Assembly: GCA_050952265.1 (NCBI GenBank)
Contig: JBMNKP010000002.1
Coordinates: 65,112 to 129,111 of the forward strand
Reading direction: 5' to 3'
Length of the DNA stretch: 64,000 bases
Source: Limnochordia bacterium
GTDB lineage: Bacteria; Bacillota; Limnochordia; Darwinibacteriales; Darwinibacteriaceae
Position numbers and translations under genes: made by a program. The notes below the pieces were generated by a model that saw only the letters and a list, made by a program, of their open reading frames with translations, was not told the DNA's origin and searched no databases. Positions within the stretch are counted from its first letter, which is position 1; each line of letters opens with the position of its first letter. Shown piece by piece: positions 49,427 to 54,391 of the stretch.

Positions 49427-49539
49427 ACAGCAGGCTTAAGCAGGTGGGAGCAGAGTTGTTCTCACCTTTTTTACTGCCCATTTATTGTTACCTCTGCCTG
49501 CTATATGTTATCTTAATATCAGGTGAGGGGGCAGAAGAC

Positions 49540-50757
49540 ATGGGCGTAGTTGTTCAAAAATACGGTGGTTCATCGGTAGCTGACACCGAACGAGTTATGG
49601 CTGTCGCCCGCCGGGTGGTGGAAACGGCCAGGCAGGGGCATCAAGTGGTGGTCGTGGTCTCTGCACAGGGAAAGACCACGGACATGCTTATCGCCAAGGC
49701 CAAAGAAATCTCCAAGAATCCACCCAAGCGTGAGCTGGACATGCTTCTGGCCACAGGGGAACAGGCTTCCATAGCCCTCCTGGCCATGGCAATAGACTCT
49801 CTGGGTGAACCGGTGATCTCGCTCACCGGGCCGCAGGGCGGGATTCTTACTGACACGCAGCATACCAAGGCGCGGATCCGAATGGTGGACGGCGCCCGTA
49901 TCAAGACAGAACTGGAAAAGGGACAGGTAGTGATCGTCGCGGGGTTTCAGGGCCTGACTCCCAACAACGACATCGCCACCCTGGGTCGAGGCGGGTCAGA
50001 CACGACGGCGGTGGCTGTGGCCGCAGCTCTCGATGCTGACGTCTGCGAGATCTACACGGATGTGGATGGAGTGTACAGTGCCGACCCCCGCATAGTGCCT
50101 GAAGCCAGAAAGCTTAGGGTTATCGACTACGGAGAAATGTTGGAGCTCGCCTTTCAGGGTGCCAAGGTTCTGCAGCCCAGGTCGGTGGAGGTCGCGGCCG
50201 TTTATGGGGTGACCATCCACGTGCGTTCGAGCTTCTCCAACGATGAAGGGACTCTGGTGAAAGAGGTGGACTCATTGGAACGGGAAATCACGGTGACAGG
50301 CGTAGCCTCCGATGAGAACTGGGCGAAGGTTACGGTGGCGGGAATCCCCAGCGACGTTGGTACGCTGCATCATATCTTTGCCTCCCTGGCCAAGGCCGGT
50401 GTCAATGTGGACATGATCGTCCAAGCCGCTGCCGCAAAGGGCACAACTCATCTCAGCTTTACCGTTACCAGGGAAGACCTGGACGAAGCGCTGAGCACCA
50501 TCGCCAAGATGAAGTCTGATCAGGATTGGGAAATCTTCGCCGACGACAATGTGGCCAAGGTGTCCATCGTCGGTGCAGGGATGATGACCAACCCCGGCGT
50601 GGCTGCCCGGATGTTTGAGGCGCTTACCGAAGCCAACATCCCCGTCTCTGTGGTGTCCACATCGGAGATCAAGGTATCCTGCCTGATCCCCCGGGAGCGG
50701 CATATCGAGGCTGTAAGGGCGCTGCACAAGAAATTTGAGCTAGACGCTGGGAAGTGA
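49540..50757 (+). CDS. Aspartate kinase
   Basis: The translation has [10 protein letters not shown] and two C-terminal ACT domains. ATG 49540 follows GGTGAGGGGG; the track ORF has a spurious N-terminal extension. Confidence 0.9.
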
Positions 50758-50798
50758 CTTGCCTTTTGCCGTGAAACGTGGTATTCTTATAAATGCGT

Positions 50799-50876
50799 CG
50801 GGGCGTGGCGCAGTTTGGCTAGCGCGCTACCTTGGGGTGGTAGAGGTCGCCTGTTCAAATCAGGTCGCCCCGACCA
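50799..50876 (+). tRNA. tRNA-Pro (anticodon GGG)
   Basis: The cloverleaf has a 7-bp acceptor stem cggggcg/cgccccg, the anticodon stem ctacc/ggtag with loop ttGGGgt, the T-arm gcctg-ttcaaat-caggt, and a 3' ACCA. Confidence 0.85.
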
Positions 50877-50878
50877 TT
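50832..50878 (+). repeat. attL core: 47-bp direct repeat, the 3' half of tRNA-Pro (copy 1)
   Basis: The sequence ttggggtggtagaggtcgcctgttcaaatcaggtcgccccgaccatt is identical to 52757-52803. Confidence 0.8.
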
Positions 50879-50903
50879 GTTTTCAGAGATTCGGATCCGC
50901 CAG

Positions 50904-50924
50904 GTCAAGCAAAAAGTCAAGCAA
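50904..50924 (+). repeat. Tandem GTCAAGCAA repeats (candidate integrase arm-type sites) near attL
   Basis: The sequence is gtcaagcaa-aaa-gtcaagcaa. The same 9-mer is repeated at 52578-52600. Confidence 0.5.
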
Positions 50925-50968
50925 TAGAAATTCAAAAAAACGGCCCTCTCATGTCGAGAGGGCTTCTG

Positions 50969-51883
50969 TTATTCTATGGCAAGATGGGAGTCCAGTTTGT
51001 CTACCGCCGAGCGTTTGACATCCTGAGATACATGTGAGTAGATGTTGGCCGTTGTAGTGATGTCTGCGTGGCCCAATAGCTCTTGCACCACCTTCAAGTT
51101 CTCGCCTTCCTCAAGCAGCCGGGTGGCGAAGGTATGGCGCAGAGCATGTATGTTTGCCTCTACCCCGGCTAACTGACAGATCCTTTTGAAGCGGCGAAAG
51201 AATTGCGGGTACTGCACATGTTTTCCTGTGCTGGTGCGAAAGACGATGTTTTTGCTCTTATCCAAGTGAATCAACTTCTGCTCTTCCTTGAGCTTCTTGA
51301 GTTCCGTTGCCACAACGCCCGGCATAGGGACGGTTCGTTTGGACTTGTATGTTTTTGGATCTGTTATTTCATACCCTCCGCTGACTCTTGACACGCCTTG
51401 CTCCACTCGGATCTCCCTTTTCACCAGATCGATGTGATGCCACTCCAAAGCAAGCAGCTCCCCGACTCGCAGGCCGGTACCGACAAGGGTGAGCATGGCC
51501 GCCTTCCACCGTTGCTGTTCCTCTGCGTAAACCTCTTTCAAGAATGACTCCAGGGCCTCGTCGTTCAGCGGTTTTATTTTCTTGTGCCTAATGCTTGGCC
51601 GCTCCGTGGCCTTGGCCGGGTTGACGTGAATGTCACCTTTTTCCACTGCTTTGTTCAAGCAGCTGTTGATTATGGAGTGTACCTTGCCTATGCTGGCAGA
51701 GGACATTCCGTTCTCCAGCATGGTGACGTACACTCGCTGGATGTCATCGGTGGTCAGATCCGACAGCTTGATATGCCCCACCACCGGCCGGACTGGGGGT
51801 TTTTGCAAGTTGAAGTGTACGAGGCCGACTGAACCTAAGCCCCACCAAAACGGTGGGGTTTTTCTTTGACAGGATTTTAACAC
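50969..51883 (-). CDS. Tyrosine site-specific recombinase (phage-type integrase), possibly N-terminally truncated
   Basis: The catalytic domain has R..HALRHTFATRLLEEG..LLGHADITTTANIYSHV (R, H-x-x-R, Y) and a core-binding domain is present. It starts at GTG with no SD and is only 304 aa. A strong minus-strand terminator lies at 50938-50966. Confidence 0.85.
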   Translation of the reverse strand: MLKSCQRKTPPFWWGLGSVGLVHFNLQKPPVRPVVGHIKLSDLTTDDIQRVYVTMLENGMSSASIGKVHSIINSCLNKAVEKGDIHVNPAKATERPSIRHKKIKPLNDEALESFLKEVYAEEQQRWKAAMLTLVGTGLRVGELLALEWHHIDLVKREIRVEQGVSRVSGGYEITDPKTYKSKRTVPMPGVVATELKKLKEEQKLIHLDKSKNIVFRTSTGKHVQYPQFFRRFKRICQLAGVEANIHALRHTFATRLLEEGENLKVVQELLGHADITTTANIYSHVSQDVKRSAVDKLDSHLAIE

Positions 51884-51923
51884 TTTGTGTGGAAATGGTT
51901 GGCAAAAAGGAGGCGATGCTGTG

Positions 51924-52556
51924 AAAAGAATCTTGTTGGCATGTCTAGTATTGTTGGCCCTGGCCGGGGTGACGTCTGCTGTACCCTATCCCTACAAAGA
52001 CTATGACTTGCCTACGACTGGTGACCTGGCAGCCATTGAGGAAGAAGTGCGGGATAGGTACACCGTCTATGCACGTTCTGAGACTGGGTCGTTCCATTCA
52101 TGGAGCTCCATATCCTGTGCAACACTGCGAGCCCCAGAACTCATGGATGCAGGACTGAACCATACCGCCAGGCAGCAGTTCCTGACCGAACAGGAGAAGA
52201 AAGACGAGAGGGAAAAGCAGTTCAAGCTGTTTGTTGACGATGTACTGTCGTTTACGCTTGTGCTGTTTTCCAGCCCATCTGCCAACGAAGGTTATCGTTA
52301 CGTTGAGGTAGACAGCCCCCTATCGTCCATCTCCCGGGTCGTCCTGGAAACAAGTCACGGTGAGATCTTCCAACCTTCTTTTGTCTACTCGGTAGATAGC
52401 AAATACATAGACGGACGGTGGTGGGGGTTCAACGGATTGCAGTTCCCCCGCTACGCAGATGGTAAGCAGATAATCAACGAAGAAACAGAGTGGGTTAGGC
52501 TGTGGGTGATTGCTGGCACGAATCGGATCTACTTCCACTTTGATTTTGAACACTGA
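51924..52556 (+). CDS. Secreted hypothetical protein (island cargo)
   Basis: GTG 51924 follows AAAGGAGG. The signal peptide is VKRILLACLVLLALAGVTSA; no recognizable domain was found. Confidence 0.5.
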   Translation, partial: KRILLACLVLLALAGVTSAVPYPYKDYDLPTTGDLAAIEEEVRDRYTVYARSETGSFHSWSSISCATLRAPELMDAGLNHTARQQFLTEQEKKDEREKQFKLFVDDVLSFTLVLFSSPSANEGYRYVEVDSPLSSISRVVLETSHGEIFQPSFVYSVDSKYIDGRWWGFNGLQFPRYADGKQIINEETEWVRLWVIAGTNRIYFHFDFEH

Positions 52557-52560
52557 GAGG

Positions 52561-52583
52561 GCACCCGCGAGGGTGCTTTTTTT
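52561..52583 (+). terminator. Rho-independent terminator after the cargo gene
   Basis: The hairpin gcaccc-gcga-gggtgc is followed by TTTTTTT. Confidence 0.75.
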
Positions 52584-52600
52584 GTGGGTCAAGCAACAGG
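52578..52600 (+). repeat. Tandem GTCAAGCAACAG repeats (candidate arm-type sites) near attR
   Basis: The 12-mer gtcaagcaacag occurs twice in tandem and shares the GTCAAGCAA core with 50904-50924. Confidence 0.5.
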
Positions 52601-52756
52601 TCAAGCAACAGGGTGCGTAAGCGGTAGGACGAGATAGGGCAAAACGGGAATGGAAACAAGAAAGCAGACTCACAAACAGGCTCCAGTAGGGCGTTACAGG
52701 AACCGCCAGTATGATGCGGGAATGGTGTTATCAGAATTGGGGTGGTAGAGGTCGCC

Positions 52757-52803
52757 TGTTCAAATCAGGTCGCCCCGACCATTTTTTTACTCACTAGCTG
52801 CTG
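52757..52803 (+). repeat. attR core: 47-bp direct repeat of the tRNA-Pro 3' half (copy 2, no 5' half)
   Basis: It is identical to 50832-50878. The preceding sequence cannot form the acceptor or D arms. Confidence 0.8.
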
Positions 52804-52862
52804 ATCCGGGCAGCGGCTCACGCAAGTGATCAGCGTGTTCAGAACCCTCTCAGGACGAGAGG

Positions 52863-52889
52863 GTTTTTTGGCACCCAGGAATCGGTGAC
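52863..52889 (+). terminator. Rho-independent terminator downstream of attR (probably the ancestral tRNA-Pro terminator)
   Basis: The hairpin ccctctc-aggac-gagaggg is followed by TTTTTT. Confidence 0.7.
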
Positions 52890-53038
52890 CGCGCCTTGGC
52901 GGGTGCGTCTCTGGCTGATTTGTGTTATAATTCTAAGGGCTGAAGACTGGCACGCCTGTCGCCGATAAGGCAGGATCAAAGCGAAGTTTTGCCAAATACT
53001 CCTAAGGGATTTCTCCCTGATGAACGCGGAGAGAGGGG

Positions 53039-54391
53039 ATGCCATTGCTGACGAAAACGATCTCTGCGGTGCTGCTGGTGCTGTTCCTCCAAGCGCCGCC
53101 AGTGTCAGCCTCTTTCACGGCAGCAGCAGAACCCGAGCTGTACGGGGCCCAGGTACTTGTGGCGGACCTGCACGGGCTGGGGACACAGTCGCTGCTTCTG
53201 GGAAAAGATCAAGGCGTGTTTGTCCTCGAGAACGGCGAGCAGCGGCAGATTTTGGAGGTTTCCGGGCGCGTGACCGCTTTAGCTGTTGGCGATCTCACCG
53301 GTGATTTCCGCCCAGATCTTGCCGTCGGGACCGAGGGGGTCGGGGCGCTGTACCTCTACACTGAGCGTGATGGCACCTGGGAGAGGCATGGCCACGCCCA
53401 GTATCTCTGGGACACCGTTGTACGGCTGGGCATATACGATTTCAACAATGATGGTTGGGGTGATGTAGCGGCATTGACGGACAAGGGAGAGGTGTATGTC
53501 TATCTCTCCCGCGAAGGAAGTCTTTTTCCTCTCTGGAGAAGCCCCGCCGGTGAACACGTGGTAGGATTCGAAGTCCTGGATGTGGACGGGAGCGGGAATC
53601 CCGAATTCATCTTTGCCCTGCGTTCTGGCTATGTAGCAGCCCTCACCTGGGGAGAAGAAGAATTTGTGACCCTGTGGGAAAACTATCCTTGGGGAGCAGT
53701 GGAAAGCCTGGTTGCCATCCCCCATCCTTCGGCCCCAGAATGGTTGGTGGTCACCAGTCAGAAGATGCTCTATGGTTGGCGCTGGCAGAACGGGGAAGTG
53801 GTGCCCAGCAGGGCCTTTGAAGCCAAAGCCCTGGGAGAACACCTGGTATACATACCCCAACAGGGCCTGCTCAGTCTCTCTGGTTCCACAGGTGTATCCC
53901 TCTTTGAGCTGCAGTCAGCAGCCGTTGTAGAGAAATGGAGAGTGCCTGGCCTGCTGGCAGACAGTGCATTTTTCTATCAAGGAGAGTTTTACGTTCACGA
54001 CAGGACAAACGCCTACTTGAGGTTGGTGGAAGGCACACCTCAGTGGCGCCTCTTCGTGTACGAAACCGAGGTAACCGGTTTTGTAGATATCCTTGTAAGG
54101 GAAGGGGAGGTCTACGCCAACCTTTTGGAGCTGGCACCGGTTTTGGGACTGACTGTTGAACTTGATGACGGCTGGCAGGTGATGGGGGCAAAGGGGCAGA
54201 TCACCCTCTGGTCTGATAGGGCAGTCCTACGATGGAACGAGATGCAGATTCCTCTGAGCCGGCCCCTGCTGGAGGAAGGAGGGGTTCCTTTCGTGCCCCT
54301 GGACGTTCTACCTCTATTGGGCTGGACTGTTCAGGTAGACTCCCTGCGCCAGCTGCTGGTTTTCCTGGAGACCTGGGGTTGGTGGATCTAG
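53039..54391 (+). CDS. Secreted FG-GAP/VCBS-repeat beta-propeller protein with C-terminal copper-amine-oxidase-N-like domain
   Basis: A signal peptide is followed by repeated DxDGDG-like motifs (DLTGDFRPDLAVG, DFNNDGWGDVAAL, DVDGSGNPEFIF). An extended -10 (TGTGTTATAAT) lies about 100 nt upstream. Confidence 0.65.
   Translation: MPLLTKTISAVLLVLFLQAPPVSASFTAAAEPELYGAQVLVADLHGLGTQSLLLGKDQGVFVLENGEQRQILEVSGRVTALAVGDLTGDFRPDLAVGTEGVGALYLYTERDGTWERHGHAQYLWDTVVRLGIYDFNNDGWGDVAALTDKGEVYVYLSREGSLFPLWRSPAGEHVVGFEVLDVDGSGNPEFIFALRSGYVAALTWGEEEFVTLWENYPWGAVESLVAIPHPSAPEWLVVTSQKMLYGWRWQNGEVVPSRAFEAKALGEHLVYIPQQGLLSLSGSTGVSLFELQSAAVVEKWRVPGLLADSAFFYQGEFYVHDRTNAYLRLVEGTPQWRLFVYETEVTGFVDILVREGEVYANLLELAPVLGLTVELDDGWQVMGAKGQITLWSDRAVLRWNEMQIPLSRPLLEEGGVPFVPLDVLPLLGWTVQVDSLRQLLVFLETWGWWI

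Follow-up and report, generated by a model that had tools for sequence, protein, structure and literature searches.

A probable temperate-phage remnant with a retained secreted-protein gene at a tRNA-Pro gene of a Limnochordia bacterium

The sole tRNA that ARAGORN detects in the 64-kb window (the whole stretch of DNA analysed here) is a tRNA-Pro(GGG), and a second copy of its 3' part lies 1.9 kb further right. What kind of element separates the two copies, and can it still move? An earlier note on this DNA offered two answers, a decayed remnant or a minimal integrative module. The locus is most probably (roughly 0.88 by our estimate) a non-autonomous remnant of a temperate phage once inserted in the tRNA-Pro gene, and this remnant cannot move by itself. 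Empty sites, a truncated integrase and an intermediate allele on the same-species contig L126 uphold the first answer, a decayed remnant bounded by att repeats. The second is contradicted by an integrase that lacks its first 105 residues and a ribosome-binding site, and by sister alleles that are frameshifted or truncated.

The ends of the element are given by the tRNA gene and its displaced fragment:
50799..50876, + strand: complete tRNA-Pro(GGG) gene with encoded CCA (ARAGORN; Rfam RF00005, 58.2 bits)
50832..50878, + strand: attL core, 47 nt, identical to 52737-52783
52737..52783, + strand: attR core, 47 nt, the displaced 3' fragment of the tRNA, with the same sequence as the attL core

ARAGORN and Rfam agree on the complete tRNA gene, at the position first proposed. 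Rfam run over the whole window at gathering thresholds returned no match and missed the tRNA itself; a local run judged by E-value found the tRNA and no further credible RNA. The block of identity begins with base 1 of the anticodon loop (TTGGGGT) and reaches 2 nt beyond CCA. It forms part of a 52-nt pair reported by the repeat finder (50832-50883 and 52737-52788) that has a single mismatch, its first 47 nt being identical; base 48 is G versus T, a difference that marks the boundary between phage (element) and host. Alignment of the two copies thus bears out the perfect 47-nt repeat of the earlier note, although the second copy had been placed about 20 nt too high, at 52757-52803 instead of 52737-52783. 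By our estimate a perfect 47-nt repeat has a chance of ~1e-19 in 64 kb and is not expected. The inserted DNA measures 1,905 bp, in agreement with the size of about 1.9 kb given before, and the 3' part of the present tRNA-Pro is supplied by the element (attL).

This anatomy resembles that of Islander tRNA-gene islands and defective prophage remnants, in which the intact tDNA and a direct 3' tDNA fragment stand at opposite ends. Here the complete tDNA occupies one end and a fragment in the same orientation the other, an integrase gene adjoins the tDNA within the island (though it is 5'-truncated), and a precise empty-site allele joins the left and right flanks across one core copy. The identity block, beginning in the anticodon loop at 50832 and reaching the 3' end of the tRNA, also matches the anticodon-centred ('A') attP class as defined in PMC4383910. 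Islander holds thousands of tRNA islands, about half of them of this class (PMC4383910, which cites Williams 2002, NAR 30:866 for it). Unlike typical Islander islands, the element in the window is far smaller (1.9 kb), its integrase is a 5'-truncated pseudogene and it has one other gene only.

The flanks show what the site looks like when unoccupied. The genes on the left are spoIVA and aspartokinase, and those on the right encode an FG-GAP repeat protein and EF-G. Joining window positions 50600-50878 to 52784-53100 gives a predicted attB of 596 nt, and the 214-kb same-species contig L127, which encodes an FG-GAP protein of identical sequence, matches it at 596/596 nt with no gaps. Two further contigs are also empty (L130 and L133; 99.8% and 99.7% match to the predicted attB), and three carry the remnant with both core copies (L128, L129 and L131). 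In four other species (L016, L017, L018 and L020; the closest genome, L015, is left out of this count, its contig ending 100 nt past the tRNA) the order is spoIVA, aspartokinase, tRNA-Pro(GGG) and then directly the FG-GAP gene and EF-G, which constitutes an empty site. The proposed comparison with unoccupied tRNA-Pro genes has thus yielded same-species alleles empty at the exact predicted junction, as well as four related species. These data bear equally on the possibility that the arrangement is an assembly artefact or that part of the tRNA was duplicated by chance. The DNA probably comes from a metagenome-assembled genome, and this repeat is a frequent break point of short-read contigs, yet the identical arrangement recurs in independent JGI, ENA, Logan and NCBI assemblies, the exact protein of the integrase fragment is found on 33 contigs, and L128, L129 and L131 span both att copies, so that the likelihood of such an artefact is minute.

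Two hairpin terminators lie just outside the cores:
52845..52869, + strand: host terminator of the tRNA gene (CCCTCTCAGGACGAGAGGG + T6; hairpin 52845-52863, T-run to 52869); the same terminator stands directly after the tRNA in L127
50942..50964, no strand assigned: bidirectional hairpin terminator with the stem CCCTCTCATGTCGAGAGGG, 67 nt past the tRNA

The first had been noted as a stand-alone terminator right of attR; it exists, but at 52845-52869 and not at 52863-52889, about 20 nt too high. All empty-site relatives have a terminator no more than about 20-30 nt past the tRNA, and a comparable one is seen in L015-L020, with a stem of the CCCTCTC/GAGAGGG type in the closest relatives, as right of attR. 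The suggestion that the insertion displaced the original tRNA terminator, pushing it 1.9 kb rightward, is supported because a terminator follows the tRNA in L127 and in all empty-site relatives, the closest of which share the stem type. The second terminator matches the first at 17/19 positions of its stem. It ends the integrase fragment, since its left A-run on the plus strand is a T-run after the hairpin on the minus strand. None of the observations named in the earlier note as telling against insertion was made: the repeats are identical, empty-site variants exist and phage-family relatives of the integrase adjoin tRNA-Pro. The locus is evidently a true site-specific insertion at tRNA-Pro.

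The integrase itself is a stump:
50969..51787, - strand: int', 5'-truncated tyrosine integrase pseudogene (Pfam PF00589, 1.9e-33; tblastn with P0001; BLAST against L001)

The gene reads toward the tRNA, as described earlier, but it is not the complete gene then assumed, homology to full-length relatives beginning only at 51787. Its open reading frame has 304 codons (50969-51883, minus strand), of which the first 32 are read-through over a plus-strand terminator. The best homologue, P0001, has 377 aa and is 99% identical; its residues 106-377 alone are encoded in the window (tblastn, 51787 to 50972), and residues 1-105 have no match anywhere in the 64 kb by tblastn. The catalytic domain is complete (PF00589 positions 7-169/172), with LRVGE, KSKR, HALRHT, LGH and IYSH (the R-K-H-R-H/W-Y residues) visible in the translation. 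The core-binding SAM-like domain is incomplete: only profile positions 40-94/98 are present, and PF14659 (P0001 residues 70-125) is cut at residue 106. P0001 aligns with the lambda-type (heterobivalent) integrases Tn1549 Int (6emy, 2e-21) and lambda Int (1z1b, 1.6e-9), and like lambda Int and Tn916/Tn1549 Int it has ~65 extra N-terminal residues at the position of the arm-binding domain. Lambda Int residue 70 aligns to P0001 residue 65, and because the alignment begins there, P0001 residues 1-64 occupy the position of the arm-binding domain; the missing part therefore comprises that domain and about 40 residues (half) of the core-binding domain. Unlike lambda-type integrases, the window copy thus lacks exactly this N-terminal part.

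Whether such a stump could still work is the crux of the proposal of a self-sufficient minimal integrative module, in which a short active integrase would serve one cargo gene. The complete catalytic domain, with its R...K...HxxR...H...Y residues, is in its favour, as is the existence of active recombinases without an arm-binding domain, such as the Xer proteins. We nevertheless regard it as very improbable: homology to the 377-aa relatives ends abruptly within the core-binding domain at what proves to be a deletion junction, all but a few of the best 120 homologues have 370-400 aa, and a sister allele is frameshifted. In addition, no recognisable ribosome-binding site was found upstream of the stump by sequence inspection and no promoter by a sigma-70 scan of 50300-53300, and an excisionase is absent. 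With two real ORFs only, int' and the cargo gene, the locus qualifies neither as an autonomous mobilisable element nor as a phage satellite. The dN/dS of the stump is 0.45-0.9, on very few changes.

How the remnant lost its other genes can be followed on sister contigs. L001, which encodes a full-length integrase, is 99.5% identical to the window from 51787 down into the tRNA. The same-species contig L126 equals window 50817-51787 plus 51775-52580, with 1,764 extra bp between that hold the rest of the integrase gene, a 149-aa gene, a lipoprotein gene and a 75-codon ORF. In the window this comparison defines one feature:
51775..51804, + strand: deletion junction 51787/51788 within 13 nt of microhomology (gccccaccaccgg); next to it, on the right, what remains of a broken terminator, its right half and T-run (ccggactgggggttttt); from comparison with L126

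The borders of the 1,764 bp are gccccaccaccgg and gccccacccccag, identical at 11/13 positions; the gccccaccaccgg site reads gccgcaccaccgg in L126, the gccccaccaccgg form being that of L001 and the window. One hybrid copy of the 13-nt repeat is kept in the window, and the loss was therefore a microhomology deletion. The orphan ccggactgggggttttt at 51788-51804 is explained in the same way, because the right end of the deletion destroyed the left arm of the terminator hairpin. L126 is itself already a remnant: the start codon of its integrase is gone, homology to L001 breaks off just past that codon, and the integrase is fused to a gene that in the IMG/VR contig L014 is the last before the cargo cassette (90.6% identity). 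From these nested structures we infer that the phage body was lost first and the 1,764 bp second. The same population shows additional decay. Alleles of the integrase cluster have 377, 367, 271, 229 and 190 aa; L124 has an additional 1-nt deletion at 51638, which frameshifts this sister allele, and in L125 the cut lies at 51538, where other genes adjoin. The sister alleles show ongoing decay rather than maintenance.

The two sets of tandem repeats pointed out in the earlier note are likewise present, as 2 + 2 copies of GTCAAGCAA:
50903..50927, + strand: P' arm, two GTCAAGCAA 12 nt apart; 24-nt block identical in L003
52587..52611, + strand: P arm, two GTCAAGCAA spaced as in the P' pair (12 nt) and oriented like it; 128 nt from the attR core, on its left

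All four copies (starts at 50904/50916 and 52588/52600) have the same orientation. The window holds 5 copies versus 0.76 expected, and at least 5 occurred in 0/100 shuffles. The distances from repeats to cores (25 nt and 128 nt) are attP-like, and the placement of short direct repeats on either side of the core is that of the P and P' arm sites of lambda-type systems. A function of the P' repeats is argued for because the pair and its spacer (GTCAAGCAAAAAGTCAAGCAATAG) are 24/24 identical in L003, in surrounding DNA that is 69% identical and beside an integrase that is 75% identical; this cross-species comparison covers the P' side only. The repeats thus flank the core on both sides and are conserved with a related integrase, and the GTCAAGCAA pairs are probable arm-type sites, predicted to have been bound by the missing N-terminal domain. 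A scan of IMG/VR for the arm repeat pair gave 29 matches, which were rejected as related elements, none of them lying beside a tRNA-Pro core. The unrelated remnant in L010 has another repeat, GTAGCTAACA / GTAGCGAACA, in the corresponding positions.

The phage ancestry of the element is drawn from relatives. L001 has an Xre-type repressor gene upstream of its full-length integrase gene. In L003 the 75%-identical integrase stands beside tRNA-Pro, and PHROG matches identify the genes after it as a repressor, a divergent Xis-like HTH gene, a DUF3102 protein, a PAPS reductase and a replication initiator. A check of integrase homology, as the earlier note had advised, accordingly places int' in a family of phage integrases whose relatives also adjoin tRNA-Pro. 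Identity to the integrases of cultured phages is ~30%, and a search of IMG/VR with the full-length integrase returned only relatives of 23-26% identity. A complete prophage of the same lineage was not recovered; the argument for phage ancestry rests on the 75%-identical relative and on the phage contexts of the cargo cassette because no contig with the 377-aa integrase exceeds 2.2 kb. GC is 0.50-0.53 within the remnant versus 0.55-0.61.

The proposed course of events is as follows. A phage whose lambda-type integrase comprised arm-binding, core-binding and catalytic domains would have recombined its attP with the tRNA-Pro(GGG) gene, as the anatomy of the locus suggests, the attP core being a copy of the 3' 47 nt of the tRNA from the anticodon loop. 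The phage copy would then have completed the tRNA (attL), the original 3' part and terminator moving 1.9 kb to the right (attR). Comparison with the sister contigs shows that a first deletion removed the phage body, beginning at integrase codon 2 and reaching as far as the ribosome-binding site of the final phage gene. A second, between imperfect 13-nt direct repeats, took the 1,764 bp seen in the sister contig and with them integrase codons 1-105 and three small genes. Left over are 272 integrase codons without start signals, both presumed arm-site pairs and one terminator-flanked moron cassette.

The cassette comprises three features:
51921..52556, + strand: cargo gene for a 211-aa secreted protein, with a GTG start, a AAAGGAGG ribosome-binding site and a signal peptide ending ...VTSA/VPYPY
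51837..51866, + strand: terminator hairpin (CCCCACC-AAAAC-GGTGGGG) and T-run, left border of the cassette, where homology to the L011 and L014 cassette starts
52561..52583, + strand: cargo terminator (GCACCC-GCGA-GGGTGC + T7), right border of the cassette; homology with L010, L011 and L014 extends as far as 52583

This single signal-peptide gene is the secreted cargo protein noticed previously. The product has a beta-sandwich-containing fold of no named family, without a Pfam or PHROG match, and its own family amounts to ~49 clusters among 1.84 billion representative proteins, with no member of known function. Compared with the copies in L010 and L011, its dN/dS is 0.2-0.4, and the gene is therefore a maintained coding gene under purifying selection. 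The sigma-70 scan of 50300-53300 found no promoter for the cargo gene either; a TTGACA hexamer stands upstream of it at 51867-51872.

Morons are independent transcription units added to prophage genomes, a concept reportedly due to Hendrix and colleagues, and several lines of evidence place the cargo gene among them. The homologous block (51840-52583) has terminators on both sides and is variably present among related phages. It follows phage genes in L011 at 95% identity; in L014, a 31.6-kb IMG/VR viral contig, a different ORF is framed by the upstream shell of the cassette and by its last 16 codons and terminator; and in L010 it lies, 91% identical, with the 3' half of a tRNA-Ala(GGC) on one side and on the other an integrase of a different family that is frameshifted and 5'-truncated, the prophage on that contig having a lipoprotein gene in place of the cassette. 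Because the cassette follows a phage gene in L011, has its ORF swapped in L014 and sits in the unrelated remnant L010, it is apparently a moron-type cassette exchanged among phages. Like morons, the cargo is a single terminator-flanked gene at the att-proximal end of a phage genome, varies among related phages, being present in some, missing from others or replaced, and has a GC content below that of the host. Unlike typical phage morons, it has outlived its phage, and the sigma-70 scan found no promoter for it. Since the moron is under purifying selection and has survived successive deletions, it is probably the only component of the remnant that still does something for the cell, and the role of the retained secreted protein is the main biological interest of the locus.

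A remnant of this kind might still be mobile with help, if the Int and Xis of a cognate phage excised and re-integrated it; the secreted-protein gene would then travel with a hitch-hiking mini-element. In favour of this are the perfect 47-nt cores and four undamaged GTCAAGCAA sites, the presence in the same populations of a full-length integrase with 99% identity, the occurrence of both occupied and empty alleles in one species, and tandem att copies in L010, which reveal a new integration beside an old remnant. However, an ancestral state explains the empty allele equally well, the sister alleles are decaying and not maintained, the two ORFs offer an excised 1.9-kb circle no replication or packaging function, and an IMG/VR scan for an attP-type junction (P side, core and P' side) gave 0 matches; mobilization in trans is quite unlikely. 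A related conjecture starts from the observation that two unrelated systems are reduced to an integrase stump and the same cassette, one with tRNA-Pro and GTCAAGCAA arms (window) and the other with tRNA-Ala and GTAGCTAACA arms (L010). The secreted beta-sandwich protein could be a domesticated phage gene under host selection, and the stumps, with cores and arm sites intact, could be movable in trans by a cognate phage. We consider this unlikely; if true, an uncultured, abundant biogas bacterium would harbour, in such stumps, hitch-hiking gene carriers of minimal size. On the preferred reading, that of an immobile phage remnant, the element is an ordinary genomic fossil of a known kind, prophage remnants at tRNA genes being commonplace, and one that is unusually cleanly documented. 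It may serve as a teaching case, with an exact empty site, an intermediate, a microhomology junction and a series of decayed alleles all from public metagenomes of one uncultured species.

The host is a Limnochordia / Candidatus Darwinibacter-like digester bacterium. Candidatus Darwinibacter acetoxidans is a member of MBA03, a group prominent in anaerobic digesters (PMC12663870); phages are not mentioned in the paper describing this group (PMC12663870). The exact aspartokinase, truncated integrase and cargo protein are deposited for a Limnochordia MAG (MGI6673578-80), and the 367-aa integrase allele for Candidatus Darwinibacter acetoxidans. NCBI annotates the two genes of the element as a recombinase and a hypothetical protein.

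The gene cassette carried by the 1.9-kb prophage remnant at tRNA-Pro(GGG), that is, the gene for the secreted 211-aa cargo protein together with its flanking terminators, is also found, whole or in part, on other contigs, and a contig of the same species departs from the window at this locus. The regions compared are as follows.

L010, 1-2687 (ENA ERZ18327520 k141_136644): remnant with cargo cassette
L014, 9390-10080 (IMGVR_UViG_3300038956_000098): cassette shell with another ORF inside
L011, 1030-1260: duplicated cargo 3' end and terminator
L124, 14642-14763 (Ga0134103_1002379): divergent end, corresponding to window 51860 onward
L015, 7338-7439 (UBA3914, the closest other species): arm-repeat look-alike and terminator

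The shell of the cassette consists of the upstream terminator and leader on one side and the last 16 codons of the cargo gene plus terminator on the other. In L014 this shell holds a different ORF of 165 codons on the opposite strand, and in L011 the cargo 3' end and terminator are present twice, around an insert of ~130 nt. These two cassettes look like products of gene replacement within a fixed shell. The same-species contig L124 is 99.9% identical to the window across 14.5 kb and shares the deletion junction that truncates the integrase pseudogene, which in L124 also has a 1-nt deletion at 51638. Directly past the terminator hairpin at 51859, L124 is fully unlike the window, and therefore carries something other than the cargo gene there. 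Residue 66 of the cargo protein (52116-52118) is Cys in the window, the sole Cys of the mature protein, and Tyr, Ser, Phe or Val in all other family members.

L010 holds a second remnant, unrelated to that of the window yet alike in architecture, running from a tRNA-Ala(GGC) 3' half through GTAGCTAACA / GTAGCGAACA repeats, an integrase, the same cargo cassette (91% identical) and repeats once more to another copy of the tRNA-Ala fragment. Its integrase belongs to another family than the window's and is both 5'-truncated and frameshifted. On its left, this remnant is accompanied by one more att copy and by the right-hand end of a different prophage, so the L010 locus is a tandem array.

In L015, the DNA downstream of the tRNA contains a sequence that resembles the arm repeats in degenerate form, GCCAAGCAAGAAGTGAAGC, and after it the CCCTCTC/GAGAGGG terminator; in the window, the internal terminator of the element (50944-50962) matches the host terminator (52845-52863) at 17/19 positions. 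There are two possible explanations: the P' arm of the phage originated as a copy of the host sequence that lies beyond the 3' end of the tRNA, or an older scar is present in L015.

An Rfam search of the whole window (1-64000) at gathering thresholds returned zero matches, yet tRNA-Pro scores 58 bits (threshold 29) when the search is limited to 50600-53100. The empty result reflects a filtering artefact that comes with the large search size, and the absence of hits in it is thus uninformative. The 437-aa aspartokinase ORF with a GTG start is over-extended, as public gene calls and homologues place the start at 49540 (405 aa), leaving a surplus 5' part:

window, 49444-49539: surplus 5' part of the aspartokinase ORF
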